From the IMG/VR virus record IMGVR_UViG_3300038415_000320: a DNA stretch of 64,000 bases; one strand, given 5' to 3'. Positions 14,724 through 44,665 of the stretch are shown here, piece after piece. Position 1 is the first letter of the stretch. Each line of letters opens with the position of its first letter. A program made the translations under genes and the position numbers. The notes beneath the pieces were generated by a model. It was not told the origin of the DNA. It worked only from the letters and a program-made list of their open reading frames with translations, and searched no databases. The DNA comes from an uncultured virus (IMG/VR IMGVR_UViG_3300038415_000320). Taxonomy: Duplodnaviria; Heunggongvirae; Uroviricota; Caudoviricetes.

Positions 14724-14740
14724 TGCTCAACCACAACACA

Positions 14741-15757: not shown

Positions 15758-15792
15758 GACAGTCAAGCAAGCGCATAGAGGTTAGGAGACCC

Positions 15793-17471: not shown

Positions 17472-17482
17472 TTTTCAGCCCT

Positions 17483-18487: not shown

Positions 18488-18520
18488 GCACGTATTGTGC
18501 CCTATTCTGCTTAGCTAGTC

Positions 18521-19330: not shown

Positions 19331-19335
19331 TTGGC

Positions 19336-20142: not shown

Positions 20143-20164
20143 CGCATTAACCAAGGTATTTCAC

Positions 20165-21613: not shown

Positions 21614-21663
21614 GTACTTTCGACTCGGCTCTTAACAATCATTTTTAAGAAAAAGGTGAAGCT

Positions 21664-22470: not shown

Positions 22471-23479
22471 CCGAGAGATTCCGGTTACTGTGTCCAATGG
22501 CGCAAAGCCGATTACATGAAACCATGGCGCTTCGCTGTTCGTTGGCGTCCCAGAAGCGTTTTAAATCTCCGCGAACTTGATACTTGACAGGCGCAAAGTT
22601 GCTAAAACTATAGCAGTGCCCAATTTCGCCATAGAGCCCAACTACCAAGTTGCGCTCATAGCAATTACAGATATGTTCACTAGTTCGCGGGGCTCCTGAC
22701 CAGCCCCGATTCAAATTGTCTCGTCCTTGCAAGTCAGCATAGTATCGACAAAACTGAGAAATCCAAAGCGGATTAAGATGTAGCTTAAATTCCAAGTTGC
22801 AGTAATTCAACTCCTCGCGCATTTTTTCAACATCAACCTGCGAGTAACTAGCGAAAAAATCATCGGGCGGCGTTTTTCCTGAATGAACTCCAAACGATGG
22901 TTGCAGTCCATTGACTTTGAGTTTGTTTGCTCCTAATTCGCGCAACACAAGCTGATAGAGTTGTCGCAGTTTGTTGTAAGTGACAGAGGTTAACAGTACC
23001 ATAACGTTTATGCGGGATTCTTTGAGCCCGAGTCTAGTCCTGGCAGCCACTAGTCGTTGCACGGCTAGGACTACTGTATCATAGGAGCCCTGACGACCTC
23101 GAATCTTGTCGTGTTCCTCCGGAATGGAACTATCCAGAGACAGTGTAAGCTCGTGTGGTCCGCGCAAGAGTAAATCGGCTGCTCGGTCGTCGGAATGCAC
23201 GCCATAACCGTTGGTAGCGTTGAAGATCTTCAATCCGTGGGATCGAGCGGCTTGGCATACTCCAATGTAGCGCTCGTATTCGAGCATGGGCTCGCCGCCA
23301 CAGATTACAACCTTGCCGGACGGGTTCAGCTCGGCAAACTCGGAAATGATTCCCGCCATCGTTTCTACGGCGATCCTTTTTGGATCTCTCCTAGTGTCGG
23401 ACATCCAAAAAAGACAGTGTTGGCATCTCAGGTTGCATTCACTGCCTACATGCAGAAAGAGAAATCCGGGAGGGTTCAT
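22445..23479 (-). CDS. Radical SAM protein
   Basis: CNLRCQHC, GGEP, TNG, SLD....HD.IRG. Confidence 0.85.
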   Translation of the reverse strand: MNPPGFLFLHVGSECNLRCQHCLFWMSDTRRDPKRIAVETMAGIISEFAELNPSGKVVICGGEPMLEYERYIGVCQAARSHGLKIFNATNGYGVHSDDRAADLLLRGPHELTLSLDSSIPEEHDKIRGRQGSYDTVVLAVQRLVAARTRLGLKESRINVMVLLTSVTYNKLRQLYQLVLRELGANKLKVNGLQPSFGVHSGKTPPDDFFASYSQVDVEKMREELNYCNLEFKLHLNPLWISQFCRYYADLQGRDNLNRGWSGAPRTSEHICNCYERNLVVGLYGEIGHCYSFSNFAPVKYQVRGDLKRFWDANEQRSAMVSCNRLCAIGHSNRNLSATLCAASE

Positions 23480-24381
23480 ATTATTTCCTTTCCTCGTTCT
23501 TCAATCATGCGATGGAGACGACACTGTCGCAGTATTCTATTTGCCACGCGTTCGGCATTTTCAAGAGTTCCACCTGGTAATTCTGAAGTGAGCTTTCCAT
23601 CTAGAAGTTCTTGTCGATACCTTTTGTTCATGGCTGGAATCGTCACGTCGATAACAAGGCCATCCAGGTCTATAGCCACGAATTGACTTGGCCGCGGCTT
23701 GCTGAGAAAGACTTTGATATTGTCATTTCCGGTCTGGCCTTTGACAATGAAAACCTGATCTCCGTATCCAGCCCGGATAAGTTCATGAGTTCGTTTGACA
23801 TGTTCATTTACCGCAGCTTCGACACCTCCGCCCTGGTCGAAATAGTCGTCGAAGACAATGATTCCGCCGGGGACTAAGCTGTCATACAGATGATTCAAAC
23901 AATCTCTAACCCCGTAATACATATCGCAGTCGATATGAATGCAGCTGATCGGTACCGGACACTTACCCGTCATGGTCTTATTGAACCATCCAGCGACAAT
24001 ATCGATGTCTCCAGCTACTCCATGTTGTTCTAAAGTAGCTCTCACAGCTCCTTCAGAATGGATCATATGACCTGGTCGATAATGCTCCGTTTCAACAGTT
24101 GCTCTTTCGTTGGGCAATCCCTCGAAACTGTCATAAGCTCGAACCCGACGACCTGTAGTCCTTAAAACCTTCGCCATCATGATCGTGATGCCGCCTCTGA
24201 AGATACCGCATTCAACCCCGGCTCCCAGCGGTGGTGAGGCCAGTATCGCATCATAGACCAGTTGAGCCTTGTATCGATGCAGGAGCGTGATTGGAGCTAC
24301 TGTCGGCCAGAGATCATCAAAAGTGGGAACCGAAGTCAAAGACGCGTCGCTCATTTTTTTTCGATTATGACCCGTAGCCAC
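23476..24381 (-). CDS. TylF/NovP-family sugar O-methyltransferase
   Basis: VECG.FRGG, YDSFEGLP, GWF..T, HIDCD.Y, GG.IVFDDY. Confidence 0.85.
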   Translation of the reverse strand: MATGHNRKKMSDASLTSVPTFDDLWPTVAPITLLHRYKAQLVYDAILASPPLGAGVECGIFRGGITIMMAKVLRTTGRRVRAYDSFEGLPNERATVETEHYRPGHMIHSEGAVRATLEQHGVAGDIDIVAGWFNKTMTGKCPVPISCIHIDCDMYYGVRDCLNHLYDSLVPGGIIVFDDYFDQGGGVEAAVNEHVKRTHELIRAGYGDQVFIVKGQTGNDNIKVFLSKPRPSQFVAIDLDGLVIDVTIPAMNKRYRQELLDGKLTSELPGGTLENAERVANRILRQCRLHRMIEERGKEII

Positions 24382-24483
24382 ACGGGTGGCTAGTTCTTTA
24401 TTGGCTCAACTGTTCAGACATCAAAAAAATGCTTCTTATCGGGAAAGCAACTGAGCTAGACTCCTATTTGAGAACCCCCAATC

Positions 24484-25434
24484 ATGAGCTGCGACAAATT
24501 CTGTGAAGGATACCGTCCACTCTCGGCCTGGGATGCTGATCGTGAGATCCAAGCATGCGAGCCTTTCACACCACCTCATTACTGTACTCGAAAGCAGTCA
24601 AGCCGAACGGTACTTGATTTCTACTATGAGCATCGATCGATTGAGCTGCATCCGCCCTCAAAGCATCACGATCTTGTTGTCATGACGGCGTGCCGACCTC
24701 TAGGTTTAACCCTGGAAAAAACATTACTGTCTCTAAAATCGGCTGGGTCTGAACGCTGGCAAGGCAATACCATTGTTTCATCGGATGGTTTGTGTTCTCC
24801 TTTCAATCGAGATTCGATTTGGGAGAGCTACGAGCAAAACCCAGCGAAAGGATCAGCTCTCGCGTTTATCCAGACCCTTAAGAGGGTCTTGAGCATGAAT
24901 CCAGATCTCGACTATCTTACGATCGTCGAGGATGATGTGGAGCTGTGCAAAAACGCTTTGGACTACATTGCCCAGGTGACTATTCCCCACGATGCGAGTT
25001 TTTTGTCGTGGTTTACTTATCCATATGACTTTTCCGGTCTTGAACGGCGTCCCAACTATCAGGTTAGTCCAGCCCGAGAAAGTATCCCTCTAGCGACGCT
25101 TGCTTGTAGGCCCTCTAGATTTTTTGTCCTTAATCAGGTCTGTACGTACTCACGTCGAACTCTCGACCGTCTATTGACATGCCCACACATCACGGACGGC
25201 TGGCCCCAGAGAAACGGCCATGATGAAATGCCTGCCTGGGCGTTGGGAGATGAGTTGTACGCCACTCATTTACCAATCTTGGCTCAGCACACTGGGGGAC
25301 TCAATTCGGCCGTTACGCTTTCTCGCAAACCCCTAGATAGCGAATCTAATGATCCTCAGGCCGGAGAACGAACATCCCCCCTCTATGTCGGCGCTAACTT
25401 CGATGCTCTCTGCTTGCTCGATACCGACATTTGA
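24484..25434 (+). CDS. Putative GT-A glycosyltransferase
   Basis: TIVEDDV motif, P.LAQH.G. Confidence 0.6.
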   Translation: MSCDKFCEGYRPLSAWDADREIQACEPFTPPHYCTRKQSSRTVLDFYYEHRSIELHPPSKHHDLVVMTACRPLGLTLEKTLLSLKSAGSERWQGNTIVSSDGLCSPFNRDSIWESYEQNPAKGSALAFIQTLKRVLSMNPDLDYLTIVEDDVELCKNALDYIAQVTIPHDASFLSWFTYPYDFSGLERRPNYQVSPARESIPLATLACRPSRFFVLNQVCTYSRRTLDRLLTCPHITDGWPQRNGHDEMPAWALGDELYATHLPILAQHTGGLNSAVTLSRKPLDSESNDPQAGERTSPLYVGANFDALCLLDTDI

Positions 25435-25448
25435 CAAGAGATCTAATA

Positions 25449-26015
25449 ATGGAACGCAAGTTCACTATCGACTGGTTTTATCACAAGATTCCGGCCTGGA
25501 ATGAGCACATTGTGCCTCGCTTCAAAGATCTGCCGGATGTCAGGTGGTTAGAGATTGGCGTTTACGAAGGAAGGTCCGCCTTTTGGGCTCTCGACAATGT
25601 TCTGCAAGGACCAGGCGCCTTGTTGTATTGTCTTGATCGATTTAGCCCAGATGTTCCCTATCTTAGTCTCTGGGCTCCCAACTTGGATTATGAAGCGGTG
25701 TTTGATGCCAATGCCGACGGCGATCTAAGAGTTGTTAAGCTCAAGGGACGAAGCCAAGAGATCCTTCCTACTATCAAAGAGCTGAAATTACATGGTGCTC
25801 ACATTGATGGCGATCATAGCAAGTCCGTCATACTTCTTGAAGCCGGTTTGGTTTGGGATATGTTACTTCCTGGAGGGGTCTTGGTTTTCGATGACTATGG
25901 TTACGAACCAATGCCCGAAGCTAAAGAAGCGATTGATGAGTTCTTAGCAAAACCAGAAGTTCATCATCAGGTACTGTTTAAAGGTTTTCAAGCCATCGTT
26001 CTCAAGCTGGAGTGA
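25449..26015 (+). CDS. Class I SAM methyltransferase (Methyltransf_24-like)
   Basis: LEIG.YEGRS, HIDGDH, GGVLVFDDY. Confidence 0.85.
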   Translation: MERKFTIDWFYHKIPAWNEHIVPRFKDLPDVRWLEIGVYEGRSAFWALDNVLQGPGALLYCLDRFSPDVPYLSLWAPNLDYEAVFDANADGDLRVVKLKGRSQEILPTIKELKLHGAHIDGDHSKSVILLEAGLVWDMLLPGGVLVFDDYGYEPMPEAKEAIDEFLAKPEVHHQVLFKGFQAIVLKLE

Positions 26016-26122
26016 CCTGATGACTTCCATGTGGGTTGGTGTCAGCCACCTGACAAAATATGGGTCGATATGGTATGCTTAGATCTTCTGATCTGACAAC
26101 CTCTGATCTAAAAAGGTGACTC

Positions 26123-26485
26123 ATGGCTAATCTTCTACATGTTACGTCTTTTGACTTGGCAGCTCTTCAAGCTACTGGTTGGACCTACGAGGCGGATTTC
26201 ATTCTGACCCCTGCCTTGCCAGCCACAAGTGTGGTACTGGGCGCTCAGATCACAACGACCGAAGCCCTTGCGGGTCCTGATCTTGTGGCTGCAAGAGCAG
26301 AGGTCAACCTGTACTCTGGTCCAGCAACGATTTCAAACATGTCGGCCGACCTCATGACACTCGGTTCCTATAACAGCGGTAATCAAGTCTATCGGCTGCA
26401 AGTGTATGTGACAGGTTGTATGATGCAAAGTCTGACAGCTGGCGCCTTGACGGTTACGTTGTTTTACGAAGACTACACAGCTTAG
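26123..26485 (+). CDS. Small acidic beta-rich protein, putative virion protein
   Basis: Thr/Ala-rich, ends LTAGALTVTLFY; AAGG RBS. Confidence 0.5.
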   Translation: MANLLHVTSFDLAALQATGWTYEADFILTPALPATSVVLGAQITTTEALAGPDLVAARAEVNLYSGPATISNMSADLMTLGSYNSGNQVYRLQVYVTGCMMQSLTAGALTVTLFYEDYTA

Positions 26486-26498
26486 TCGACTGCCGATC

Positions 26499-27521
26499 AT
26501 GATAGTTGGCTATTCGCCAAAGCACGATCGCCCAATACAGATCGGATTCCTAGGATTCCATAAACTGTGGGATCCGATCTGGAATCCGATCACGATTTCT
26601 CTAGCCCATCGGTACAGCCTCGATGTGTCGTCCAGCTGTTCAGACGGTCATTTGGAACCCATCCCCGAGGTTTTGTTCACCTCAGTTTTTGAAGCAGGGG
26701 GCCTCACGATGCAGAAACGATGGTGTCACTCTGGTGCCATTGGTTCAGCATCGGAGAGGCCACTTTACCTCGACCGTCGTTATGCCCAGTCCCTCAAGAT
26801 CTACACGAGCGATGAGTGTGTACCGCCTCCGTGGGATGAGTGTGATTACGCCATGTCGTATTCGCACGAGCAAGATCATCGACATCTGCGTCTTCCCGTG
26901 TATGTGGGAGGCCTTCGATTCTTGCTTGATTTGCCCTGGATTAGAGAGGGCAGAATGCGTTTTCCTAACTTGTCGCTCTCAAAGAGACACACCAGTAATT
27001 GGGATCAGATCTTTGCGCTTAAAACCCGATTCTGCAACTTCGTTTACACCAACGCACAGGTGCCTGAACGAAACGATTTCTGCTGTCTTTTATCTAGGTA
27101 TAAGAAGGTCGATTGTGGAGGGACCGTCCTGAACAACATTGGATCCCTCGTAGCAGAGAAGCAGCCATTTCTGGAAAACTACAAGTTCACCATTGCCTTT
27201 GAAAACCGATCGTGCCCCGGCTATGTGACAGAGAAACTTGTAGATCCAATGATAGCTCGCAGCGTTCCTGTTTATTGGGGTAGTCCGACCCTTGACCAGG
27301 ACTTCAACCCGCAAAGCATCGTAGTCGCGACAGGTAGAAAGATGTCAGATGTTGTAGGCGAGATTATAGCACTTGACAAAGATGACTCGGCCTATATAGC
27401 GAAAATGCAAACTCCCTGGTTCCATGGAGATGTAATGAATCGTTATTGCAGTGTTGACTATGTCGCTGATTTCTTTGAGAGAATTCTTACTGAGCAAAAA
27501 CGATCACGGGTAATGGATTAG
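26499..27521 (+). CDS. Glycosyltransferase family 10 (second fucosyltransferase-like paralog)
   Basis: YKFTIAFEN..PGYVTEKL...PVYWG. Confidence 0.9.
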   Translation: MIVGYSPKHDRPIQIGFLGFHKLWDPIWNPITISLAHRYSLDVSSSCSDGHLEPIPEVLFTSVFEAGGLTMQKRWCHSGAIGSASERPLYLDRRYAQSLKIYTSDECVPPPWDECDYAMSYSHEQDHRHLRLPVYVGGLRFLLDLPWIREGRMRFPNLSLSKRHTSNWDQIFALKTRFCNFVYTNAQVPERNDFCCLLSRYKKVDCGGTVLNNIGSLVAEKQPFLENYKFTIAFENRSCPGYVTEKLVDPMIARSVPVYWGSPTLDQDFNPQSIVVATGRKMSDVVGEIIALDKDDSAYIAKMQTPWFHGDVMNRYCSVDYVADFFERILTEQKRSRVMD

Positions 27522-31335: not shown

Positions 31336-31659
31336 CTAATGAACTGCCCAAAAAGAGACTACTAACAAAACAATGGACGCAAGTAGTCGCCAGTTGATAG
31401 CGGCCCACCAAGTTGAATCTGATGGCTTTGACAAGTCTTCGTCTTCAACATCCCGAGACGATGGACGATCGACGATACTGTAAGATCGCGACACCGCCAG
31501 CCGCCAGACACCAAAGAAAACGATCACCGCATAGGGACCGTAGGGAGCACATCCAAACGCGACATAGATCACCAAGGACAGAATCGCAACTTGAGCCGCA
31601 AAGGTTGGATCTGCCTTCGCTGCTTCTGATGCTTCATCGGATGTCTTCTCGTTACACAT
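31336..31659 (-). CDS. Small membrane protein (paralog of 40513..40839)
   Basis: DPTF..QVA.L.L.I.VAFGC..YGPYAVIVFFG.WRLAVS. Confidence 0.75.
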   Translation of the reverse strand: MCNEKTSDEASEAAKADPTFAAQVAILSLVIYVAFGCAPYGPYAVIVFFGVWRLAVSRSYSIVDRPSSRDVEDEDLSKPSDSTWWAAINWRLLASIVLLVVSFWAVH

Positions 31660-31732
31660 GATTCGTCCTCGCCAGTTTCTTGGATGATTCTGCTCGCCTC
31701 GAAACAAAGAGTCAAGTGTCTTTTTGAGAAGA

Positions 31733-31830
31733 TCAGGAATACCCAAATCCCAAAGCTATCAAGTCGTTGATACTCACCGGGCCGCCCCCTTGAACTAGCT
31801 TGTACAGCTCCATAGCGTCATCTTGTTTTC
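31733..31830 (-). pseudogene. 3' remnant of a paralog of 40904..41194, cut by the IS605 insertion
   Basis: QDDAMELYKLVQGGGPVSINDLIALGFGYS* vs QDDAIDLYELVRGGGPVYIKDLLSLGFGYS. Confidence 0.7.
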
Positions 31831-31849: not shown

Positions 31850-32278
31850 TTAGGGAGGGGAGGAAGCGCGTCCTCTTTGTTGTTCCACGTACCGTTTGAC
31901 AACTTCCAGGGGAGCCCCTCCGCACGAAACGGCACAGTACGAAGGGGACCAAAAATGTTCTCCCCAGGTCTTCTCGGCAACTTCAGGCAGCGCCGCCGCT
32001 CGAAGCATACGAGCCGAGACCCCTTTCAGGGAGTTGACCAAGGTGGAGAGTGCTACCTTGGGCGGGTATGCGACGAGCAGGTGGACGTGGTCGTTCTCGA
32101 AGCCTGCTTCCTTGAGCTCGCACTCGAAGTCGGTGCATACCGTGATCCAGGCGGTTCGAAGCACGTCGAAGACTCGCTGCGAGATAACTCTCTTCCTGTA
32201 CTTCGGTACGAAGACCAAGTGAGCGGTGAGACAAAAAACTACATGGCGCCCGGTTCGAAAGTCGCTTGACGGTAGCAT
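31850..32278 (-). CDS. tnpA: IS200/IS605 Y1 HUH transposase TnpA
   Basis: HLVFVPKYR, DHVHLL (HUH), LKGVSAR, FWSPSY, YVEQQ. Confidence 0.95.
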   Translation of the reverse strand: MLPSSDFRTGRHVVFCLTAHLVFVPKYRKRVISQRVFDVLRTAWITVCTDFECELKEAGFENDHVHLLVAYPPKVALSTLVNSLKGVSARMLRAAALPEVAEKTWGEHFWSPSYCAVSCGGAPLEVVKRYVEQQRGRASSPP

Positions 32279-32300
32279 AGACCAAGTATAAACTAGACCT

Positions 32301-32588
32301 GTGCTCGTTAGCAAGGGTTTTCGATTTAGGATCTACCCAACCAGGGAGCAGGCTGCCACCTTGGTTCGTTGGGAGAGCACCTTGCGGTTCTTGTGGAACA
32401 TCGCCAACGAGCAGCGGTTGATCGGGCTTGCCCGTCCTCGAGGTGAGAAGAAGTACGTCACAGCGTTCGATCAGATCAACGAGTTGACTGGCTTGAGAGC
32501 TGAGTTTCCTTGGATCGCCGAGGTTCCCCGCAACGTGTGTGCTCAGTTGCTCACGGAGCTGGACGCTGCTTGGCAACGATGTTTTTTT
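32301..32588 (+). pseudogene. tnpB: TnpB N-terminal fragment (HTH/WED start), RuvC deleted
   Basis: GFRFRIYPT.EQ, RFLWN, L..LD.AWQRCF, after which homology switches to the duplicated sRNA block. Confidence 0.85.
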
Positions 32589-32601
32589 GTGGACTGCCAC
32601 C

Positions 32602-32696
32602 AAAAGCAAAAGCCCTCCTTTTGGGAGGGCTTTGCTTCTCTGGATTCCAGCCTTACCAGAGATGGCGTTTTCTATGTTCTTCGGCGAGGAAGAATT
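32602..32696 (-). ncRNA. Candidate ~95-nt small RNA, copy 1
   Basis: Own promoter TTGTCA-N17-TAATTT (32703-32731), two hairpins and an intrinsic terminator; near-identical to 42159-42254. Confidence 0.6.
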
Positions 32697-32736
32697 GCTG
32701 TCAAATTACACTGGCTTCCAGACGATGACAAGTGCC

Positions 32737-33372
32737 TTACGCCCAAAATCGTGTATCGGGTACGCCTGGCACCCACACCAGTCGTCGACCTTCATTGATT
32801 CGCCTAGCTGCAATGTCATCTGAGCTAAAACGGTACTCAGGATATTTCTCTGGGTCTTGCAGATAAAGCTGATGATTGCGGTCTTGCGCCTTCGGGGCGT
32901 CCCATTGCTTCGCTCCGTCCGTGAAATCCTCCACCCTTCCCGCTTGGATTGCCTCTGCTAGCTGCAAGGTCTTCGCCGTTGGGGAATGGCTAGTAGCGGC
33001 GTATCGGCCGGCCTGAGACCCGAAACGGCCGTTGCCATCCCATCGCTTGGAATGCAAAAGCAAACTCGGAATCTTGTAACGATTCTTCTTGACAGCGTTC
33101 CAAATTGCCAGCCCAACCGCTAGTCGGCCCTTGTCAATCTTCTCTTCCGACTGCATACACGACGCCATGGCGTAGATTTCGAGCGGATACCCCGAGACTC
33201 GGGCCAGCCCAGCCGGACTTGCCTCAACGACGCCACGGACGTTCACCACGTGCAATCGAGTCTCGATCTTTGGATCTAAAAGCCTTCGAGTGCCGCTGAA
33301 GAGCGATGCAATGCCCAAGGCTGCTACTGAGCCGAGTCCTAGCAATAACCATTTCGGTTTATGATCTTCCAT
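32737..33372 (-). CDS. Membrane-anchored cell-wall hydrolase-like (SleB/Hydrolase_2-like) protein, copy 1
   Basis: N-terminal TM; MA.C..SE....LAVG.AI.N; D.T.GA..W. Confidence 0.55.
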   Translation of the reverse strand: MEDHKPKWLLLGLGSVAALGIASLFSGTRRLLDPKIETRLHVVNVRGVVEASPAGLARVSGYPLEIYAMASCMQSEEKIDKGRLAVGLAIWNAVKKNRYKIPSLLLHSKRWDGNGRFGSQAGRYAATSHSPTAKTLQLAEAIQAGRVEDFTDGAKQWDAPKAQDRNHQLYLQDPEKYPEYRFSSDDIAARRINEGRRLVWVPGVPDTRFWA

Positions 33373-33384
33373 AAAAGCCTCTCT

Positions 33385-34215
33385 CTAAGCGATCGCTCTC
33401 CAGATCCCATCAGCACGGCCCGCTTGCTTGAGAGCCGCCACCGTATGAGGCCCCGGAATGCCATCAGGAACTTCTATTCCCACCAGCGACTGCCGCTGCT
33501 TCCACTTTGCAATATCATCGTAGTGGGCAAAATCGATTCGCTCAGCGCCAGCTGTTTCCAGAGCATCCATGATGGCATCGCCTGGATCCCCTTCTCCGCG
33601 GGCAGCTGTCAAATCTCGATGCCCAACAATACCCACAACATCCGATAAAGGCGTGCCAGTCTGCTGAGATGCCACAAACCGAGCGATCGGATGTCCATTG
33701 TAGGCCATTGGGACCTGACGTTGAATTGCCGTAGGCATGAGAGCACACAAAGACAAAGCCAACTTCGCCGCATGTGCGATCTGACTTGCATACAGCTCGG
33801 CTTTCCCATGTCCCTGCACGACTTCAATGCCTACTGACGTTCCATTGGCGGCCTGCGCATGGTAGGCCGCCTGCGTGACCAAGTCAGCACAGCAGTAGAT
33901 ACGACCATCAAAATCTATGATGATATGAGCACCTCCCGGCCGAGCTGTATCTGCAGTCCAAGATCCAACAATGCGCTCACCAGCTTTCGAGGACGGGCCA
34001 AATCCCGGCAAGAGGGTCTGAGGTCGCAGGTCAGAGCCTCCAGGAATACCACCTGTCGTGTGCATCACGATCAGTTGAATTGCATGCCTCTCACGAGCAT
34101 TGCGCCATCGAACATCGCCCGGCGCAAGTGCCAAGGCAGGATTGTCAAGAAAATTCTCGATGTCGAATCCCGGCATCGATACTGCTTTGCCTTCGAGAAT
34201 AAGTCCTGTACCCAT
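33385..34215 (-). CDS. N-acetylmuramoyl-L-alanine amidase (endolysin) with a C-terminal PG-binding motif, copy 1
   Basis: IVMHTT, AH..ID.DG, AYHA...N..SVGIE, GH.D, DPG, DGIPGP.T. Confidence 0.85.
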   Translation of the reverse strand: MGTGLILEGKAVSMPGFDIENFLDNPALALAPGDVRWRNARERHAIQLIVMHTTGGIPGGSDLRPQTLLPGFGPSSKAGERIVGSWTADTARPGGAHIIIDFDGRIYCCADLVTQAAYHAQAANGTSVGIEVVQGHGKAELYASQIAHAAKLALSLCALMPTAIQRQVPMAYNGHPIARFVASQQTGTPLSDVVGIVGHRDLTAARGEGDPGDAIMDALETAGAERIDFAHYDDIAKWKQRQSLVGIEVPDGIPGPHTVAALKQAGRADGIWRAIA

Positions 34216-34283
34216 GCAAATTAGGATACTCGCAAGTCGTCAAGATTGCACCTTTCGAAGTCCACCTGGGTAGAAGCCGAAAG

Positions 34284-34451
34284 TCACACCCGAAGGATCC
34301 ACATGATCAGGCGTTCCCACCAAGGAAAGTGCTCATTCACATCTATGTCGCCGTACAGCCGAGTGTGATAACCCGAGACCTTGCGACGCTCACGCTCCCG
34401 CTCCCAATAAGAGCCGCGCCGTTTTCTTCGCCGATACTTTTTAGGTTGCGT
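34284..34451 (-). pseudogene. Small basic protein paralog of 43840..44001 with the start changed to ACG
   Basis: QPKKYRRRKRR...HFPWWERLI.WILRV*. Confidence 0.55.
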
Positions 34452-34529
34452 GAGAACCTCGTTTCATCTGCTCCGGCAAAACATCAGGATGCCGTTTACA
34501 TTTGCGGACTTCGCTCAAGAGTGTAGTCG

Positions 34530-36443
34530 GTCTCAAGTACAAAGCCCCTGAGCAGGCGCTTCGATGACCCCGAGTACTATCTATTGGTTTGTGTGTCAGC
34601 CGTCTCAAGAACAAAGCCCCTGAGCAGGCTCTTCAATTTGGTTTTTGAGACGATAATCCGTTGAGTTGCTCTGGTCTCAAGAACAAAGCCCCTGAGCAGG
34701 CTCTTCAATTTCTCCGCCGAGTCGCGGTCTCTGGCCCACAGCTCGTCTCAAGTCTCAAGAACAAAGCCCCTGAGCAGGCTCTTCAATCTGCGTCTTGCAG
34801 TCAGCATCGATAGCTTTTCCCGTGGTCTCAAGAACAAAGCCCCTGAGCAGGCTCTTCAATGTCGAATCCGCCTCGGCGAGAGCGAGACGGACGCCTAGTC
34901 TCAAGTCTCAAGAACAAAGCCCCTGAGCAGGCTCTTCAATCTGCGAAGTCCACACTCATTGGTCATGGTCTCAAGAACAAAGCCCCTGAGCAGGCTCTTC
35001 AATATGGCCATAATTGCCGCCATGCAGCTGGCGACTGAATCGTCTCAAGAACAAAGCCCCTGAGCAGGCTCTTCGATCGCCTTTGACGCTCTCTTCAATG
35101 GTCCCACTGACAAGGGTCTCAAGAACAAAGCCCCTGAGCAGGCTCTTCGATCCCTACTGACCAGCTCTCCATTCGTGGGCCGTAGGGTCTCAAGAACAAA
35201 GCCCCTGAGCAGGCTCTTCGATGTCTCATCGAGCGTGTAGGGCGTGGCCCAGAAGGTAGTCTCAAGAACAAAGCCCCTGAGCAGGCTCTTCGATTCGCTT
35301 GTCTCGTGCCTGTTCCATGCACATTTCCCGTGTCTCAAGAACAAAGCCCCTGAGCAGGCTCTTCGATCCAAGGCTGCCGGAGTGCCCGTGGAGTTCATCC
35401 GCGTCTCAAGAACAAAGCCCCTGAGCAGGCTCTTCGATATGTGGCACAAACGCCACGAAGTGACACGAGCGCGCCACGTCTCAAGAACAAAGCCCCTGAG
35501 CAGGCTCTTCGATCTCTCCATTCGTGGGCCGTAGGGTCTCAAGAACAAAGCCCCTGAGCAGGCTCTTCGATGTCTCATCGAGCGTGTAGGGCGTGGCCCA
35601 GAAGGTAGTCTCAAGAACAAAGCCCCTGAGCAGGCTCTTCGATGTCTACCGTATCTTCTGGACCGTGCCCGTTGTCGGGTCTCAAGAACAAAGCCCCTGA
35701 GCAGGCTCTTCGATCCGGACGCTTAGCCGGACGGGCTCCCGTCGGGAAGTCTCAAGAACAAAGCCCCTGAGCAGGCTCTTCGATCGACTAACTTTTGGAG
35801 GGCGGGGAGATTGGACCTAGTCTGTCTCAAGAACAAAGCCCCTGAGCAGGCTCTTCGATATGTGGCACAAACGCCACGAAGTGACACGAGCGCGCCACGT
35901 CTCAAGAACAAAGCCCCTGAGCAGGCTCTTCGATAGCTTGCCCGACGCCTCGTCAAACGCGAGCTGCTCGTGTCTCAAGAACAAAGCCCCTGAGCAGGCT
36001 CTTCGATGCCAAGGACTTCGGTGACGCCTTCTGGCAGGCATGTGGTCTCAAGAACAAAGCCCCTGAGCAGGCTCTTCGATGCAAATTTCACATCCTTTCG
36101 CTGCTAATAGCATCCTGTCTCAAGAACAAAGCCCCTGAGCAGGCTCTTCGATTTCAAAATGCTCGCCGCAGAGTCGAGGCTAGAAGCAGCGTCTCAAGAA
36201 CAAAGCCCCTGAGCAGGCTCTTCGATTTGCTACGGTATCTGGCCGTGAGCTGAACATCGAGAAGTCTCAAGAACAAAGCCCCTGAGCAGGCTCTTCGATT
36301 CATGTAGGGCTGAGTGGAGCCGTTGACACCATGGAAGTCTCAAGAACAAAGCCCCTGAGCAGGCTCTTCGATGAGGACGAGCATTTCCACAGCGGTCCAG
36401 CACACATGTCTCAAGAACAAAGCCCCTGAGCAGGCTCTTCGAT
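34530..36443 (-). CRISPR. CRISPR array: 27 repeats of 36 bp and 26 spacers (mostly 34-39 bp)
   Basis: Repeat on + is GTCTCAAGAACAAAGCCCCTGAGCAGGCTCTTCGAT (crRNA sense ATCGAAGAGCCTGCTCAGGGGCTTTGTTCTTGAGAC, internal hairpin); degenerate terminal repeat at 34530. Confidence 0.98.
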
Positions 36444-36562
36444 AGCTCTCCCAATATCTATTTGGTTGTCAATAGGTTACAGACTACATTGCGAGCGGTT
36501 CGAAACGAACGAGAAATCAAGATTGTAACTACCTGATTTACCTGGAAGCAATCAACTCATTA
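36444..36562 (-). promoter_or_regulatory. CRISPR leader with IHF-like sites
   Basis: AT-richer region between cas12 and the first repeat; AATCAGGTAGTTA (36526-36538, minus) fits WATCARNNNNTTR. Confidence 0.5.
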
Positions 36563-38491
36563 CTACGCCGCTCGATTGGTCCTTCGAGATCGCAGCCAAG
36601 CTCCCAACAGATTCATGCTCGCGTTGTAGTCCTGATCCCAAGTCTTGCCACACTTCTCTTGGCAGGTATGCACGATGGCCGGAGCTGCATCCCACTTGGA
36701 GTGCTTATCCTTTTCTTGATGACATGCATGACAGTCTTGCGTGGTATACGCAGCAGGGAGCTTCCACAACGTCGAACGCCACGCCGAGCAAGCTGAGGCA
36801 ATAGCTTGCCGAAACTCACTGATTGCCGACATAACCCGATTGTGTCGTTGAGTCTGGGGGTTATCGTCGTCCTCTTCGGGCTGAGCATTCTCCACGATCT
36901 TAGCCAGCTTGAAATCTTCCAGCAACACGTTGTGAGCACTTCGAGCTAAGTCCAAGCCAACATGACGAAAGAAGTTCTTGCGTTCGCCCATCGCCTTAGC
37001 TCGCTCGTTTGTTTCCCACTCATAGAGGTGAAGGAATTGTCGGCGCCATGCAGTCATCTCCTCGTAGATGAGCGTATCGCCCGCAAACCTTCGCCGACCC
37101 CATTCTCTCACGTTCCAGGCGAGGTTCTTGGAGGAGCGCGACTGAGCTAAAAACTGGAAGGTATCTTGGAACCAGGCCGGAAGAATGGGCTTGTTGAGAC
37201 CAATCCATTCCATGAGCCGATCTTGAATGGCATTGAATGCATCATCTTCCTTGCCTCGCAACGAGTCCGCGTGTTTGAGCTTCTCGACGATAGACGTCGG
37301 CAGTAAGATCTCCTTGCGATTGCCCGCAGTATCGACCAGATACGCGATTCGGAGCACATTCTTCTCACGCACTCTCCATCCCACATCGACGGCAATGGCT
37401 TCCATTCGATCGGCGACAGCTATCTTCTGTTCGAAGGAGGGAGCCTCGATGATCAACTGCAGATGATAGATCTCATGGGTGCCCAGCATCTTCTTTCGGA
37501 TCCAAGCCCACTTGATAATGCCATCAGCCGGGAGCTGCCGGTGCATCGTCACTTTGCACTCCATCCAGATCGGAGCATTTTTGGGAGTGCTGCCGATACG
37601 CATCTTCATGGTGGTTCGAGCAGCTCGACGACGATCGCCACGCCTTGTGGATGCGGCCTGATAGGCAATTTCGGGAGGTACCACAATCTGAAGCCTCGTA
37701 TCGTCAGCCAAGCCACTGATCGGCAAGCCACGGTTCTCTGGCGTTTTCTGAGCGTAACGGTCTTGTTTCATCTTTAGAAGACGCTCGGCAAACGATTCCA
37801 CAACCTTCGATTTCTTGCCCAGTTCTTTTGTCATCGCACGCAGTCGTTTTTGTTCGCTGGCAATGTGCTTGCCCGATGCTACCATCTCCTCGCTCAGGTT
37901 TTTGCCTTGCAGCTGCAAGCCAATCCGACCACTGTTGTCCCATGGATGAATCTTTGGATCTCGCTCCGCGTTTTTGGCGGCTTGCAATTCTTGGACAACC
38001 AGGGCTCGTGTACCCCAGGTCAGCCCTCGCGCTGCATAATCATCAAGAATTGCCTTTGTAGCAGCCTTTGCCACCTCGTCGGCTTCCTTGCCCACCGCCA
38101 CCAAACCTAGATCGCCACTCACCTTCTTCGCGGCGATCTTTAGGAACACATCCTGTTTCTTCAGCTCAGCATTCAATGCCGCGACTCGGGCGTTTTGCTC
38201 GGGCGTCTCTACGCGGGTGCGACTCTTCTGCCGAATGAGTTTGATTTCCTCCCGCACAGCATCGCGCTGTTTTTTCAGTTCGAGGTATGGCTGCTCGACA
38301 ACTGCATACTCGGGCAATGTCGACCTGTAGGCTCTGAAGGTGTAACGACGCTCCAGCTCAACCGCCACCAAATCGTTATGACAAGAATACCGCATCCGAT
38401 ATTGGAGGTCGACATCCTCCATCGGAGATGTAATCTCCGTTATTCGGAAAGACCAAATGCGGGTTGGATCTTCAGTTGATTTTCTGACCAT
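36563..38491 (-). CDS. cas12m: Type V CRISPR effector, Cas12m (V-U1/C2c4)-like, 642 aa
   Basis: RuvC-I AVD369VGWR, RuvC-II LLE525DF, Zn ribbon C587/C590/C610/C614, RuvC-III DQD621YNA; L.WGT, WD.SG.I..QLQ, MRIGS, MHR.LP.D motifs; adjacent array. Confidence 0.85.
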   Translation of the reverse strand: MVRKSTEDPTRIWSFRITEITSPMEDVDLQYRMRYSCHNDLVAVELERRYTFRAYRSTLPEYAVVEQPYLELKKQRDAVREEIKLIRQKSRTRVETPEQNARVAALNAELKKQDVFLKIAAKKVSGDLGLVAVGKEADEVAKAATKAILDDYAARGLTWGTRALVVQELQAAKNAERDPKIHPWDNSGRIGLQLQGKNLSEEMVASGKHIASEQKRLRAMTKELGKKSKVVESFAERLLKMKQDRYAQKTPENRGLPISGLADDTRLQIVVPPEIAYQAASTRRGDRRRAARTTMKMRIGSTPKNAPIWMECKVTMHRQLPADGIIKWAWIRKKMLGTHEIYHLQLIIEAPSFEQKIAVADRMEAIAVDVGWRVREKNVLRIAYLVDTAGNRKEILLPTSIVEKLKHADSLRGKEDDAFNAIQDRLMEWIGLNKPILPAWFQDTFQFLAQSRSSKNLAWNVREWGRRRFAGDTLIYEEMTAWRRQFLHLYEWETNERAKAMGERKNFFRHVGLDLARSAHNVLLEDFKLAKIVENAQPEEDDDNPQTQRHNRVMSAISEFRQAIASACSAWRSTLWKLPAAYTTQDCHACHQEKDKHSKWDAAPAIVHTCQEKCGKTWDQDYNASMNLLGAWLRSRRTNRAA

Positions 38492-38556
38492 AGAAACTCC
38501 TTTTCAGTTAATACACTTGCAACTTGGCGAAGTAACGCTTCTTCACCTGGGCGAGG

Positions 38557-38958
38557 TCACATGTGCAGGTCTGCTAGTCTTGACCATTCGGAATGGAAGA
38601 ATCTCAGTAATTTGGCAGCTCGTCCGTAGTGACTAACCACTGGAGCCCCTATCGCGTGTTCGTTGACTACCTCATAGTCTGCTTCTTGCGCATCCAGCCA
38701 TTGTAGCAACTCTTTGAGGCCAGGCGACTGCTCACGGGTCATTGGCTCCTCAGATGAACTGTTTGTGGAAGTACCACCAGCAATTTTTAGACCCGCTCCC
38801 ATGGCCAATCTATTAAGAGAAGCCGCAATTGTAGCTTGGTGCTGAGGAATCATCTCAGGTGCCGCTCGGAGTATGGCGTCGTAGGTAGCTCGAATAATTG
38901 CAAACTCTTGTTGTAACGACAAGTAGTCGAATTTTCGATCGCCAGCTGGTAGTGTCAT
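38557..38958 (-). CDS. Hypothetical protein (paralog of 30775..31254)
   Basis: Shared motifs; GGAGG RBS. Confidence 0.75.
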   Translation of the reverse strand: MTLPAGDRKFDYLSLQQEFAIIRATYDAILRAAPEMIPQHQATIAASLNRLAMGAGLKIAGGTSTNSSSEEPMTREQSPGLKELLQWLDAQEADYEVVNEHAIGAPVVSHYGRAAKLLRFFHSEWSRLADLHM

Positions 38959-40516: not shown

Positions 40517-40839
40517 CTTGCTCCAATCCAAAATGCAACTGCCAGCAGAATAATTGCCGCCAGTATCCGCCACTTGAACCATCTACATAGATCTGACAAG
40601 TCGGCATCAGCTACCTTTTTGACTTCTGAATCACAAGCTGGTGGGCGATCTACGATGCTTTGCGACCCGGATACCGCCAATCTCCAGATTCCAAAGAAAA
40701 CGATCACCGCGTAGGGACCATAACTCTCACACCCAAACGCGACATGAATTATCAACGCCAGCACTGCGACCTGCACCACAAAGGTTGGATCTACCGATAC
40801 CTGGTCATCTGTGATATCGGATGGTTTTTGATCGTTCAT
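40513..40839 (-). CDS. Small membrane protein (paralog of 31336..31659)
   Basis: Shared TM segments. Confidence 0.75.
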   Translation of the reverse strand: MNDQKPSDITDDQVSVDPTFVVQVAVLALIIHVAFGCESYGPYAVIVFFGIWRLAVSGSQSIVDRPPACDSEVKKVADADLSDLCRWFKWRILAAIILLAVAFWIGAR

Positions 40840-40903
40840 GTCTCGTCCTCGCCGGTAACTTGAATGATTCTGCTCGCCCCAAAACAAAGAGTCAAGTATC
40901 TTT

Positions 40904-41194
40904 TTAAGATGGCCCAGAGTAGCCGAATCCCAGGCTTAACAGGTCTTTTATGTACACCGGACCGCCTCCTCGAACCAGCTCGTACAGGTCTATTGCGTCA
41001 TCCTGCTCTGACGCTACAAAATCCCGCTCCATTCCCAAGTTGCAATCGGCCTCCATCACGACTTGGAAGCCGAGCTGATCGGCAAACTTGTAAAGCGTCA
41101 GCCAAGCGTACCCCTCTTGTCCAAGGGCTATCCGCGAAGTCCGCAAGGTTTGCTTGTCACTAGCCGGCCGAACTGTGAGTGTCACCTTTGACAT
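40904..41194 (-). CDS. Hypothetical protein, probably from a leaderless or very short-leader mRNA
   Basis: ATG 7 nt after the TAGAAT -10 box; paralog remnant at 31733. Confidence 0.65.
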   Translation of the reverse strand: MSKVTLTVRPASDKQTLRTSRIALGQEGYAWLTLYKFADQLGFQVVMEADCNLGMERDFVASEQDDAIDLYELVRGGGPVYIKDLLSLGFGYSGPS

Positions 41195-41997: not shown

Positions 41998-42158
41998 CCA
42001 AGAAATCAACTACTCGCGAACATGTCACCTCGTGTACTTTAAAGCCGTCAAGGCCGCCAGCAGAGCCGGCATAGCGGCTCGATCTTTTTCTCTATTGGCC
42101 GCCTGCTTGCTTGTAATCAATCGCTCCAGAGTCAAGTTGTTTTTTCGGGGACCTCTCC

Positions 42159-42254
42159 AAAAACAAAAGCCCTCCTTTTGGGAGGGCTCTTGCTTCTCTG
42201 GATTCCAGCCTTACCAGAGGTGGCGTTTTCTATGTTCTTCGTCGAGGAAGAATT
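42159..42254 (-). ncRNA. Candidate ~95-nt small RNA, copy 2
   Basis: Promoter TTGTCA-N17-TAGTTT (42261-42289), same hairpins and terminator as copy 1. Confidence 0.6.
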
Positions 42255-42294
42255 AACTTGAAACTACACCACACGATCGACGGTGACAAGCCCC

Positions 42295-42930
42295 CTAGGC
42301 CCAGAATCTTGTCTCTGGTACACCAGGCACCCAGATCATCCGTCGCCCCTCGCTGATACGTCTCTTTGCAATATCGTCCGCACTGAATCGGTACTCAGGA
42401 TATGCCTCGGGGTCTTGCAGATAAAGCCGATGATTGTGGTCTTGCACTCGCGGAGCATCCCATTGCTTCGCTCCTCCCGTGATGTCCTCCACTCGCCCCG
42501 CTTGGATCGCCTCTGCTAGCTGCAAGGTCTTCGCCGTTGGGGGATGGCTGGTAGCAGCATACCGACCGGCCTGGGAACCGAATCGGCCCTTACCGTCCCA
42601 CCTCTTGGAGTGCAAAAGCAAACTCGGAATCTTGTAACGATTCTTCTTGACAGCATTCCAAATAGCTAATCCAACCGCTAAACGGCCCCGGTTCGTCTTC
42701 TCCTCCGACTGCATACACGAGGCCATGGCGTAGATTTCAAGCGGATACCCCGAAGCCCGAGCCAAACCGACCGGGCTCGCCTCGACCACCCCGCGATCAT
42801 TCACCATGTGCAATCGCGTTTCGATCGTAGGCTCGAACAGCTTTCGAGAGCCACTAAAGAGCGAGGCGAGACCTACAGCAGCGGCCGAGCCGAGCCCAAT
42901 CAGCCACCATTTTTTGCTGTGCTCTTCCAT
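42295..42930 (-). CDS. Membrane-anchored cell-wall hydrolase-like protein, copy 2
   Basis: Close paralog of 32737..33372. Confidence 0.55.
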   Translation of the reverse strand: MEEHSKKWWLIGLGSAAAVGLASLFSGSRKLFEPTIETRLHMVNDRGVVEASPVGLARASGYPLEIYAMASCMQSEEKTNRGRLAVGLAIWNAVKKNRYKIPSLLLHSKRWDGKGRFGSQAGRYAATSHPPTAKTLQLAEAIQAGRVEDITGGAKQWDAPRVQDHNHRLYLQDPEAYPEYRFSADDIAKRRISEGRRMIWVPGVPETRFWA

Positions 42931-42938
42931 GACTAGCC

Positions 42939-43769
42939 TCAAGAAATAGCTCTCCAAATACCTGCTGCTCGACCGGCTTGTTTGAGAGCTGCGACCGTTT
43001 GCGGACCTGGAATGCCATCAGGTACTGCAATCCCAACCAGAGACTGCCGCTGCTTCCAAGTCGCAATGTCTTCGTAGTAAGCAAAATCCAGTCGCTCGGC
43101 GCCTGCTGTCTCCAAGGCTGCCATGATGGCATCCCCTGGATCCCCTTCCCCGCGGCTGGCCGTTAGATCTCGATGCCCCACGATACCCACAACATCAGAC
43201 AGCGGAGTGCCCGTCTGTTGCGATGCCACAAACCGAGCTATCGGATGCCCGGTGTAAACGGTCGGTATCTGTCTTTGAATCGCTGTCGGCATGATCGCAC
43301 ATAGCTCCAAAACAAACTTCGCCGCCACAGCTAACTGACTTTCATATAGCTCGGCCTTTCCATGTCCCTGCACCACTTCGATGCCTACCGAAGGTCCATT
43401 GGCCGATTGCGCATGGTATGCCGCCTGTGTAATCAGGTCGGCACAGCAGTAGATACGACCGTCGAAATCTACGATGATATGAGCCCCACCAGGCCGGGTC
43501 GTATCTGCTGTCCACGAACCTACAATTCGCTCACCAGCCTTCGAGGAAGGACCAAATCCAGGCAAGATAGTCTGAGGCCGCAGGTCAGATCCTCCAGGGA
43601 TTCCACCGGTTGTGTGCATCACGATCAGTTGGATCGCATGCCGCTCACGAGCATTGCGCCATCGAACATCGCCATGCGCCAGCTCCAGCGAGGAATTGTC
43701 AAGATAATTCTCGATGTCGAATCCCGGCATCGATACAGCTTTGCCTTCGAGAATGAGTCCTGTGCCCAT
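42939..43769 (-). CDS. N-acetylmuramoyl-L-alanine amidase (endolysin), copy 2
   Basis: Close paralog of 33385..34215. Confidence 0.85.
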   Translation of the reverse strand: MGTGLILEGKAVSMPGFDIENYLDNSSLELAHGDVRWRNARERHAIQLIVMHTTGGIPGGSDLRPQTILPGFGPSSKAGERIVGSWTADTTRPGGAHIIVDFDGRIYCCADLITQAAYHAQSANGPSVGIEVVQGHGKAELYESQLAVAAKFVLELCAIMPTAIQRQIPTVYTGHPIARFVASQQTGTPLSDVVGIVGHRDLTASRGEGDPGDAIMAALETAGAERLDFAYYEDIATWKQRQSLVGIAVPDGIPGPQTVAALKQAGRAAGIWRAIS

Positions 43770-43839
43770 GACCGCTATGATACGCGCAAGTTGGCAATAT
43801 TGCACCTTTCAGCGGGGGCACCTGGGGAGAGACAGCTGC

Positions 43840-44001
43840 TCACACCCGAAGGATCCAACAGATCAGACGTTCCCACCATGGGAAGTGATCAGCCAAGTCC
43901 ACGTTGCCGTACAAGCGCTCATGATACCGATCGCCTTTTTGACTCGCTCGCTCCCAATACATGAGTCGACGCTTTCGTCGTCGATACTTTTTAGGCTGCA
44001 T
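43840..44001 (-). CDS. 53-aa basic protein (below the ORF-track cutoff)
   Basis: MQPKKYRRRKRR...FPWWERLICWILRV; frame conserved in the second copy. Confidence 0.6.
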   Translation of the reverse strand: MQPKKYRRRKRRLMYWERASQKGDRYHERLYGNVDLADHFPWWERLICWILRV

Positions 44002-44665
44002 GGAAACCTCGTTTCATCTGCTCCGGTAAAACCTTTGGCAGCTGCTTACTTTTACCAATCACACTCGCTTGAAACACTCTCGATCTCCACGTTTTGTTCT
44101 CGATCTTCAGGACAATTAGCTCGCCCGGCTTGGCAACATCAAAATGCAGGTTTAACTTCTCATTCTCGGTAAACAGTTGAGCTGGCATTCGCATGGGGGC
44201 GCAAGTGAACTGAGATTGACCTCCTATGACAATATCGTGTACCTGAAAGTAAATGCCTAAAACGACTGGAATCACAAACCTAGTTGGCTCGAACTCATTC
44301 GACATGAGTACCGACACGTCAACCACAGAGCGACGTTCAATGGTTGTCGATCCAAAACCGAATATAAAGTCTCTCTTGGTCTCCTTGTCTGCGACTAGAG
44401 AAGGACGATCATTTAGATCGCGAAATACAGCCTGATCTAGCTTTAGTCGCTCATAGGCATCGCATATGGACTGAAATCGCTGAGTGGCATCGGGCCGCTT
44501 ACTATGATCGGGATGTTCGAGCATAGCCAGTTCTCTATAAGCGCACCGGAGCTGACTAAATAACACTGGACCTTCCAGTCCAAGCGTATTCAAATCTCGT
44601 TGGGATTGCCGACTAATCAGACTCGATGGTGCTGAGGAGCTTTCTGAGCTAGAAAAACGACGCAT
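43991..44665 (-). CDS. J-domain (DnaJ-like) protein fused to the capsid-like beta-sandwich domain
   Basis: LGL...AYR.LA..EHPD...F..I..AYE.L, then FEPTRFVIP...FQVHDIVIGGQSQ...P..LFTEN...DVAKPG..I...IEN. Confidence 0.75.
   Translation of the reverse strand: MRRFSSSESSSAPSSLISRQSQRDLNTLGLEGPVLFSQLRCAYRELAMLEHPDHSKRPDATQRFQSICDAYERLKLDQAVFRDLNDRPSLVADKETKRDFIFGFGSTTIERRSVVDVSVLMSNEFEPTRFVIPVVLGIYFQVHDIVIGGQSQFTCAPMRMPAQLFTENEKLNLHFDVAKPGELIVLKIENKTWRSRVFQASVIGKSKQLPKVLPEQMKRGFHAA

Follow-up and report, generated by a model that had tools for sequence, protein, structure and literature searches.

What kind of CRISPR (clusters of regularly interspaced short palindromic repeats) system is formed by a solitary effector gene and a long repeat array on a DNA recorded as viral, and does the complete RuvC triad of the effector mean that it cuts DNA? 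We address this question for a stretch of 64,000 nt from the IMG/VR record IMGVR_UViG_3300038415_000320, an uncultured virus classified in the Caudoviricetes; the whole 64-kb stretch is referred to as the window. On its minus strand, the gene of a 642-aa protein (P0001) runs into its stop codon, a 119-nt leader and then the array. The effector belongs to the Cas12m family, and the locus is a stand-alone CRISPR system of type V-M. In the explanation that we favor, with a probability of about 0.7, the locus is part of a mobile element that is probably a tailed phage of large size from peat, and the effector binds and silences its target DNA without cutting it.

The effector, its array and the family they belong to

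The family assignment is carried by full-length homology and by the predicted fold. Used as a single sequence in phmmer, the protein matches the PDB chain 23vw_A with an E-value of 2.5e-60, then GoCas12m (8pm4, 7e-20), a chain named "UnCas12m4a" (1.6e-14) and Cas12m2 (1e-13). A profile of 40 family sequences gives full-length matches to four Cas12m structures (E-values of 4.6e-191 to 2.6e-82), whereas for TnpB, Fanzor and Cas12f only the last ~140 C-terminal positions of the profile find a match (1e-17 or weaker). The PADLOC model Cas12u1, which carries the old V-U1 name, matches the effector at 2.2e-79. Pfam recognizes only the C-terminal Cas12f1-like TNB domain, and the TnpB matches in NCBIfam are all sub-threshold, as for guided_TnpB (2.7e-08, below its cutoff). 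The AlphaFold2 model built from the 40-sequence alignment has a mean pLDDT (predicted local distance difference test) of 87.5 and a pTM (predicted template modeling score) of 0.79. The top ranks of a Foldseek search with this model are Cas12m2 and GoCas12m (8hhl, 8pm4) with template modeling (TM) scores of 0.72-0.79, compared to at most 0.43/0.62 for Cas12f. VIA-align gives Z scores of 23.3-24.7 over 475-552 aligned residues for Cas12m, 17.7 for TnpB, and at most 15.4 for Cas12f. The original prediction had placed the protein in type V-U1/Cas12m from its motifs, and the profile and predicted-fold matches agree with that placement. The motifs WD..G...QLQ, HR.LP, D.GWR and AWRR fall on nearly invariant columns of the 40-sequence alignment, and the catalytic codons D369, E525 and D621 and the intact four-Cys ribbon are found exactly where they had been proposed.

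The family around this protein is extensive. A HMMER scan of 1.84 billion representative sequences returns 3075 hits at E<=1e-3, of which a threshold of 1e-10 leaves 2465 and one of 1e-30 leaves 1183, so the Cas12m-related family is large. The 50%-identity cluster of the window protein includes just one other representative, at 64% identity; the next-nearest representative is at 38%, and no protein outside this cluster exceeds 38% identity to the window protein. We built a maximum-likelihood tree of 50 rows, midpoint-rooted and with no outgroup, in which the 40 rows of the family alignment are joined by five proteins from metagenome-assembled genomes, four plasmid proteins and the homologue from Virus Rctr197k. 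Five close orthologues form one clade with 100% support, around which metagenomic and IMG/VR sequences branch, first L009, then L008 and L063 from an 80-kb viral contig. MsCas12m and an H-D-D protein from a Mycobacterium plasmid fall outside the orthologue clade. An intermediate between TnpB and the catalytically dead Cas12m, as had been suggested for this protein, is rejected by its nested position within a large Cas12m radiation and by the confinement of the TnpB match to the C-terminal part of the profile. We also reject an identity as an IS200/IS605 TnpB, again on the C-terminal TnpB match, and on the 27-repeat array that follows the gene. The TnpA nearby in the window is paired with a tnpB fragment of its own, and no TnpA is found near the Cas12m relatives in the loci compared.

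Gene and array lie where the original prediction had them, as a 642-aa TnpB-superfamily protein beside an array of 27 repeats (Table 1). Public data also include a shorter call of 619 aa (P0002) for this gene. The N-terminal residues of the effector (8-20, within the first 20) are conserved among the orthologues and a Shine-Dalgarno-like AAGGAG precedes the ATG, and for these reasons we prefer the 642-aa start. The proposed absence of adaptation genes holds for the window, where neither Pfam (87 open reading frames, ORFs, of at least 70 aa) nor PADLOC (90 ORFs) finds a match to the Cas1, Cas2 or Cas4 families. For the trans-activating CRISPR RNA (tracrRNA), of which none had been obvious, no anti-repeat is found in the 64 kb; beyond the array, the repeat is matched over 11 nt at most. 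A covariance model of the repeat, run with no filters on both strands, recovers only the 27 array copies, all on the minus strand at 38 bits, with the next match at 13.6 bits (E 0.6). We find no Rfam families and no tRNA in the window, and promoter and terminator scans around the locus give no more sites than do shuffled sequences.

Table 1. Features of the Cas12m locus and of the cassettes on its two sides, in window positions.
Feature	Positions	Strand	Evidence
Duplicated lysis-like cassette, copy A (211-aa ORF + Amidase_2 endolysin-like ORF)	32580..34482		80% identical to copy B; Amidase_2, PHROG endolysin
CRISPR array, 27 repeats + 26 spacers	34530..36443	- (crRNA sense)	repeat count, covariance model
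Degenerate terminal repeat, 2 mismatches, leader-distal end	34530..34565	-	array reading
Leader, 119 nt, stop codon to first repeat	36444..36562	-	identical in L004
cas12m-family effector gene	36563..38491	-	phmmer, family profile, PADLOC, AlphaFold2, VIA-align
RuvC-III Asp codon, D621	36629..36631	-	D in 40/40 family members (biased count, see text)
Four-Cys zinc ribbon C587, C590, C610, C614, TNB domain	36650..36733	-	Pfam PF07282, E 1.2e-09
RuvC-II Glu codon, E525	36917..36919	-	E in 36/40 family members
RuvC-I Asp codon, D369	37385..37387	-	D in 8/8 close homologues, 39/40 family members
Insertion of 58 aa specific to the clade (residues 196-253), helical hairpin by prediction	37733..37906	-	alignment, AlphaFold2
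Shine-Dalgarno-like AAGGAG, 5 nt 5' of the ATG at 38491	38497..38502	-	read from sequence
Duplicated lysis-like cassette, copy B, opposite side of the island	42138..44032		Amidase_2, PHROG endolysin

The array consists of a 36-nt repeat and of 26 spacers of 22-44 nt, of which 24 are unique. The CRISPR RNA (crRNA) is encoded by the minus strand, because the degenerate repeat is leader-distal, the array directly follows the gene, and this order recurs in the relatives: gene-then-array is found in 29/60 metagenome loci (many of the others end just past the gene), in 13/15 IMG/VR loci and in Rctr197k. In the orientation of the gene, the repeat has ...CTTGAGAC as its end and folds into a 6-bp stem closing two bases before its 3' end, together with a 3-bp pseudoknot of an upstream GCC with the stem loop. 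The repeats found beside relatives in 19 other loci, including Rctr197k, align readily with that of the window. Over the resulting 20 loci, 92.8% of the cells in the proposed structure are paired, compared to 67.6% for shuffles and 24-47% for slid partners, and 8 of the 9 pairs have two-sided changes. The crRNA of Cas12m2 is described in the accessible text of PMC10442227 as having a pseudoknot, a stem and a terminal A(-2)C(-1), and the structure read from the aligned repeats is of this same handle type. Several features of type V-M are present, namely full-length homology, the predicted Cas12m fold (WED, helical REC, and a RuvC with a long helical insertion and a zinc finger), the repeat handle and an adjoining array without other cas genes, the arrangement described for V-M in PMC10691335.

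Several features of the array speak to its history. Counting from the leader-distal end, repeats 2-7 share one change, CAAT for CGAT. In leader-first numbering, spacer 8 is identical to spacer 14 and spacer 12 to spacer 17, and spacer 13 (22 nt) repeats the beginning of spacer 18 (35 nt); these duplicated spacers and the truncated copy indicate that a block of the array was duplicated by recombination. Spacers 22 and 24 start with a 7-nt copy of the repeat 3' end (TTGAGAC), hence their lengths of 44 and 42 nt. In a contig from another sample (L004), the first 12 units appear in the same order, with spacer 6 missing and no new spacer on the leader side. The locus of a 65%-identity orthologue (L003) has the 3' 31 nt of the repeat in common with the window, and 0/4 of its spacers. 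Of the leader, the ~35 nt that adjoin the first repeat are also kept between these two loci (36444-36480 in the window, 3805-3841 in L003) and the remaining leader is not; the conserved stretch, GTAAC.TATTGACAAC..AATAGAT.TTGG, could be a promoter element or a signal at the leader-repeat junction. The spacers are richer in GC (0.58) than the window (0.50). In IMG/VR there is no match to the exact 31-nt core of the repeat. Contigs assembled from four peat sequencing runs break or collapse at the array and are uninformative on spacer turnover.

From this anatomy, and by analogy with the published relatives, we propose the following mechanism. The minus strand would be transcribed through gene and array, and the precursor crRNA (pre-crRNA) would be cut by Cas12m itself, with no tracrRNA. 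Each mature crRNA would consist of a repeat-derived 5' handle, with the pseudoknot and the stem and ending in ...GAGAC, followed by the guide. The complex would then locate double-stranded DNA (dsDNA) flanked by a protospacer-adjacent motif (PAM), form an R-loop and stay bound, and in doing so may block transcription or replication of the target, be it a rival phage, a plasmid or a host gene, without cleaving it. Self-processing, PAM-dependent binding and the lack of cleavage are the steps borrowed from those relatives. The locus would make no new spacers itself, and its array would be altered mainly through recombination between repeats.

The carrier of the locus

Is the element that carries this locus a phage? 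The window encodes two Amidase_2 endolysin-like proteins, ThyX, a deoxynucleotidase and a PolB-type exonuclease, as identified with Pfam and PHROG, and an N4 gp25-like VWA protein, with matches in 367 phage records, together with its AAA partner. It includes a long block of co-directional genes, and 58/87 ORFs are without a Pfam family. Relatives of the effector occur in 15 IMG/VR loci on contigs of up to 202 kb, and orthologues at 64-67% identity are on contigs of 140 kb and 282 kb. These relatives in IMG/VR and in genome contigs were recovered by alignment-based scans, not by the single-protein IMG/VR scan or the first genome-contig scan. The window sequence itself is present in peat and wetland metagenomes from several studies. 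Taking this together, the window is probably viral. The virus-borne setting that had been proposed agrees with the phage-like gene content, but no capsid, portal, terminase or tail protein is matched in the window, which is part of a longer contig (PHROG at E<=1e-5 for 88 ORFs, and at E<=0.01 for 40 unannotated ORFs).

An unlikely alternative, if the one that fares best among those considered here, is that the same mechanism has another bearer: a plasmid, an integrated element or a bacterial chromosomal island. Type V-M is "strongly enriched in plasmids" according to the accessible text of PMC11656645, which also mentions that some prophages encode V-M. The lack of any matched structural or packaging family of phages in 64 kb points in the same direction, as do the IS200 TnpA and a 15-kb cluster of radical-SAM, methyltransferase and glycosyltransferase genes. 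The endolysin-like amidases, the VWA and AAA pair, ThyX, the deoxynucleotidase and the PolB-type exonuclease all argue for a phage instead, and so do the high fraction of ORFs without a Pfam family and a Pfam scan of the window in which no rep, par or tra family is matched. In addition, the nearest outgroup clade of the effector includes the 80-kb IMG/VR contig, and the 15 IMG/VR loci hold further relatives.

The surroundings of the locus have features of their own. The island that contains gene and array is flanked by diverged direct copies of a cassette, 80% identical for the pair given in Table 1 and 75% identical for a second pair of segments (31462-31822 and 40642-41002). Each copy comprises an Amidase_2 endolysin-like ORF, an ORF of 211 or 220 aa, a small membrane-like ORF, and an ORF of 133 or 170 aa. 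This arrangement may have come about through tandem duplication of a segment, or because related elements recombined around the island. An intact IS200-type Y1 TnpA (31850-32314, minus strand, Pfam 6.4e-38) lies back to back with a TnpB fragment (32301-~32580, plus strand) that retains only the first ~95 aa (HTH_OrfB_IS605) and ends where the homology between the cassette copies resumes; the two are what is left of an IS200/IS605 element that inserted into cassette copy A and has no relation to the Cas12m gene. The ~15-kb cluster (12908-27521) has six radical-SAM ORFs by Pfam, two of them with SPASM, and a seventh with a weak match below cutoff. It also has four methyltransferase-like ORFs, of which two have TylF as their top match, two GT10 fucosyltransferases, and a GFO/IDH/MocA oxidoreductase. 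The cluster resembles a module that modifies sugars or glycans, which would be unusual cargo should the element be a phage. Elsewhere in the window, a 185-aa ORF (7297-7851, plus strand) matches the PADLOC candidate defense model PDC-M21A (E 2.1e-27). An RRM_1 RNA-recognition-motif protein (58681-59073, minus strand, E 2.3e-19) and a protein with the PHB_acc_N DNA-binding domain (60314-60613, minus strand, E 3.2e-11) are located amid unannotated small ORFs. A peat run from 2025 (X6) covers positions 36815-38600 with a variant of the effector gene that differs in 24 letters out of 776 bases in the best-covered piece and has an in-frame 3-nt deletion at 37428; past the far end of the array its sequence differs. 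From this diverged variant we conclude that related strains coexist in the peat habitat.

The RuvC triad, the spacers and the question of cleavage

The complete D-E-D triad was the feature by which the original prediction set this locus apart from known Cas12m systems, and that distinction falls. According to the accessible text of PMC10442227, Cas12m proteins divide by their triad into four clades: HEK/HQK in clade 1, HDD in clade 2, DED/NED in clade 3, and DED/DND/NED in clade 4. D-E-D clades are therefore published, and among the relatives of the window protein D-E-D is the majority state. We find it in 36/40 aligned relatives, a set for which the RuvC-III motif was among the search patterns. 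Of the 150 nearest 50%-identity representatives, which come from the unbiased HMMER scan, 116 have it. Use of the RuvC-III motif as a search pattern is also the reason why the count of 40/40 for D621 is biased. The cysteines of the zinc ribbon are kept as CCCC in 38/40 family members and in 144/150 nearest representatives. An altered triad (H-D-D, N-D-D and similar), which defines clade 2 only, is not that of the window protein; as clades 3 and 4 have D-E-D forms, this is compatible with V-M membership. The triad of MsCas12m (D274/E429/D518, from the A. silvanus plasmid gene) aligns with D369/E525/D621.

The published experiments, as given in the accessible text of PMC11013384 and PMC10442227, speak for binding without cleavage. 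Eight Cas12m proteins have been tested, four of them D-E-D, and PMC11013384 reports no detected dsDNA cleavage for any; purified MsCas12m and GoCas12m are reported not to cleave target DNA, target RNA or collateral substrates. In the same report, TfCas12m and GoCas12m show plasmid interference, and the D274A mutant of MsCas12m retains pre-crRNA processing. A protein in which HDD had been changed to DED did not regain cleavage (PMC10442227). Because the tested D-E-D Cas12m proteins do not cleave, the nuclease-competent Cas12m relative that had been envisaged for this locus is unlikely. In 34/150 nearest representatives the triad has been lost, through many different substitutions. These varied losses are in line with what PMC10691335 calls the "gradual inactivation" of V-M, and the repetition of the loss suggests that catalysis is dispensable for the core function of the family.

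What does the array target? The 26 spacers have no target in the window outside the array, where the best match is 16/18 nt, and none in 61 related loci. In blastn searches with the whole array, neither a set of 50,697 phage records nor one of 72,556 plasmid records yields a target, and exact 24-mers from 4/24 unique spacers find none in IMG/VR. In the opposite direction, the spacers of 46 related-locus arrays give only a 15-nt chance match in the window.

Some of these observations weigh against a binder that silences competitors without cutting. Retention of the triad in 116/150 representatives and 36/40 relatives implies selection on the RuvC pocket; a pocket so retained could, like that of Cas12m2, dock the displaced non-target strand in a Mg-dependent manner, or could provide some catalytic activity. 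The nearest tested relative, MsCas12m, has only ~29% identity over 58% of the protein. The clade of the window has a 58-aa insertion that is found in no tested protein. It is present in only 5/40 aligned relatives, and none of the 150 nearest representatives has it apart from the 50%-identity cluster of the window protein; its two helices are predicted at residues 201-224 and 229-248, with pLDDT of about 82-93. Finally, no spacer has a protospacer in the searched sets, and so it is assumed that the array is directed at other mobile elements.

If the D-E-D site were catalytic in the window clade, the effector would be a compact tracrRNA-free DNA cutter or nicker directed at phage competitors, which we consider improbable. 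The three residues are intact and the triad is kept in most of the nearest representatives; the clade is only 29-38% identical to the tested proteins or to any protein outside its own cluster, and its insertion is unique. The preprint 10.64898/2026.09.14.751636 suggests nuclease activity for MvCas12m, as far as its accessible text goes from the residues alone. Set against this, four of the four tested D-E-D Cas12m proteins are reported without dsDNA cleavage and MsCas12m without cis or trans cleavage of DNA or RNA, the back-mutation from H-D-D to D-E-D is reported not to bring cleavage back, and the triad has been lost repeatedly. Moreover, the best-matching chain, 23vw_A, was deposited as a "DNA-binding protein" and also has D/E/D in the phmmer alignment. 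In a broader and somewhat more speculative form, the phage-associated D-E-D branch of Cas12m, which includes the window protein with its private helical hairpin, may keep its triad for cutting, by nicking of the displaced strand or by cleavage under native conditions that escaped the assays on MsCas12m and others, as a compact, tracrRNA-free, self-processing nuclease of phage-versus-phage warfare.

More doubtful still is that the system, in place of acting against competitors, controls genes of its own element or of the host, as a regulator similar to CRISPR interference. A non-cutting binder can tolerate self targets, and the phage, plasmid, related-locus and IMG/VR searches give no external target. 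The 64-kb window, however, has no spacer match beyond the array better than 16/18 nt, and according to the covariance model it is free of solitary repeats; an array of 26 spacers, with wholly different spacers in a 65% orthologue, resembles immune memory and not a fixed regulator. Least probable by far is that the effector is of type V-F (Cas12f), as an automatic typer might label it: its best PADLOC model is PDLC01692 ("Cas12f, CAS-V-F", 2.1e-82 across residues 25-632), but the Cas12u1 model for V-U1 is nearly equal, the solved Cas12f chains match the profile only at positions ~441-569 (1e-10 to 1e-6) while Cas12m chains match at full length, the VIA-align Z scores of at most 15.4 compare with 23-25 for Cas12m, and no anti-repeat or tracrRNA is found in the window, so that we read the full-length PADLOC "Cas12f" match as a labeling matter.

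Known relatives and what the locus means

The best sequence match among known systems is the 577-aa chain 23vw_A, "CRISPR-associated DNA-binding protein Cas12m", which covers profile positions 13-565. It shares with the window protein D, E and D at the RuvC positions and the WDQDYNA motif, but it is 65 aa shorter and has no counterpart of the 58-aa insertion, residues 196-253 of the query being left unaligned; this comparison is by sequence only. MsCas12m, from plasmid pMESIL02 of Allomeiothermus/Meiothermus silvanus, is likewise D-E-D with an array after the gene, and it is described as tracrRNA-independent and self-processing in the accessible text of PMC11013384. It differs in its length (536 aa), in being plasmid-borne, in its identity of 29% over 58% of the query, and in branching outside the window clade. 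MmCas12m2 (8hhl, 8hio) and GoCas12m (8pm4) have the same fold as the window protein (VIA-align Z 23.4-24.7, ~550 residues), no other cas genes and, as described in the accessible text of PMC10442227, a crRNA handle with pseudoknot, stem and terminal AC. They are however clade-2 H-D-D proteins from Actinomycete plasmids, with ~20-22% identity. The IS200/IS605 TnpB proteins share the RuvC and zinc-ribbon core, PF07282 and a VIA-align Z of 17.7 (ISDra2 TnpB); only the C-terminal third matches, and where those elements have an omega-RNA and transposon ends the window has an array.

Two phage systems come closest in setting. MvCas12m of myxophage MV-1 (bioRxiv 10.64898/2026.09.14.751636), presented in that September 2026 preprint as the first phage Cas12m, is also a V-M locus with a D-E-D triad (D305/E463/D555). 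In the accessible text of the preprint, cas1, cas2, cas4 and a tracrRNA are all described as missing from it, and its spacers as having no targets that could be identified. By that description, which is the only basis of the comparison, it has 610 aa and 8 spacers where the window has 642 aa and 26 spacers. Virus Rctr197k (KX853510, Caudoviricetes, 197 kb) encodes a 622-aa D-E-D homologue with a same-strand array 34 nt past the annotated gene and a homologous 36-nt repeat that ends in ...CTGAGAC. Its protein is only 28% identical, and the gene is annotated just as "similar to transposase", with an annotated CRISPR following. About 5.5 kb upstream of this gene and its 1.5-kb array, Rctr197k has a 467-aa "transposase-like protein" (930-2333) and then a second small array with a different repeat (2571-2825).

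The D-E-D triad, the missing adaptation genes, the missing tracrRNA and the mobile-element setting are thus all already described for V-M. Particular to this locus are the 58-aa insertion, an array that is rearranged and comparatively long, and its place between two diverged lysis-like cassettes; what is new are the insertion and the long array rearranged by recombination. The practical value of the system would be modest, as a putative compact DNA binder with a long natural array and an insertion that could alter the contacts with DNA or the R-loop. If the D-E-D pocket were catalytic, the locus would reopen the question of why the tested D-E-D Cas12m proteins are inactive, and only then would its importance be greater. 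If instead it binds and silences without cutting, as we favor, it would be one more divergent example in a growing set of phage-borne Cas12m loci, a set that supports the view that mobile elements deploy non-cutting CRISPR effectors against their rivals.

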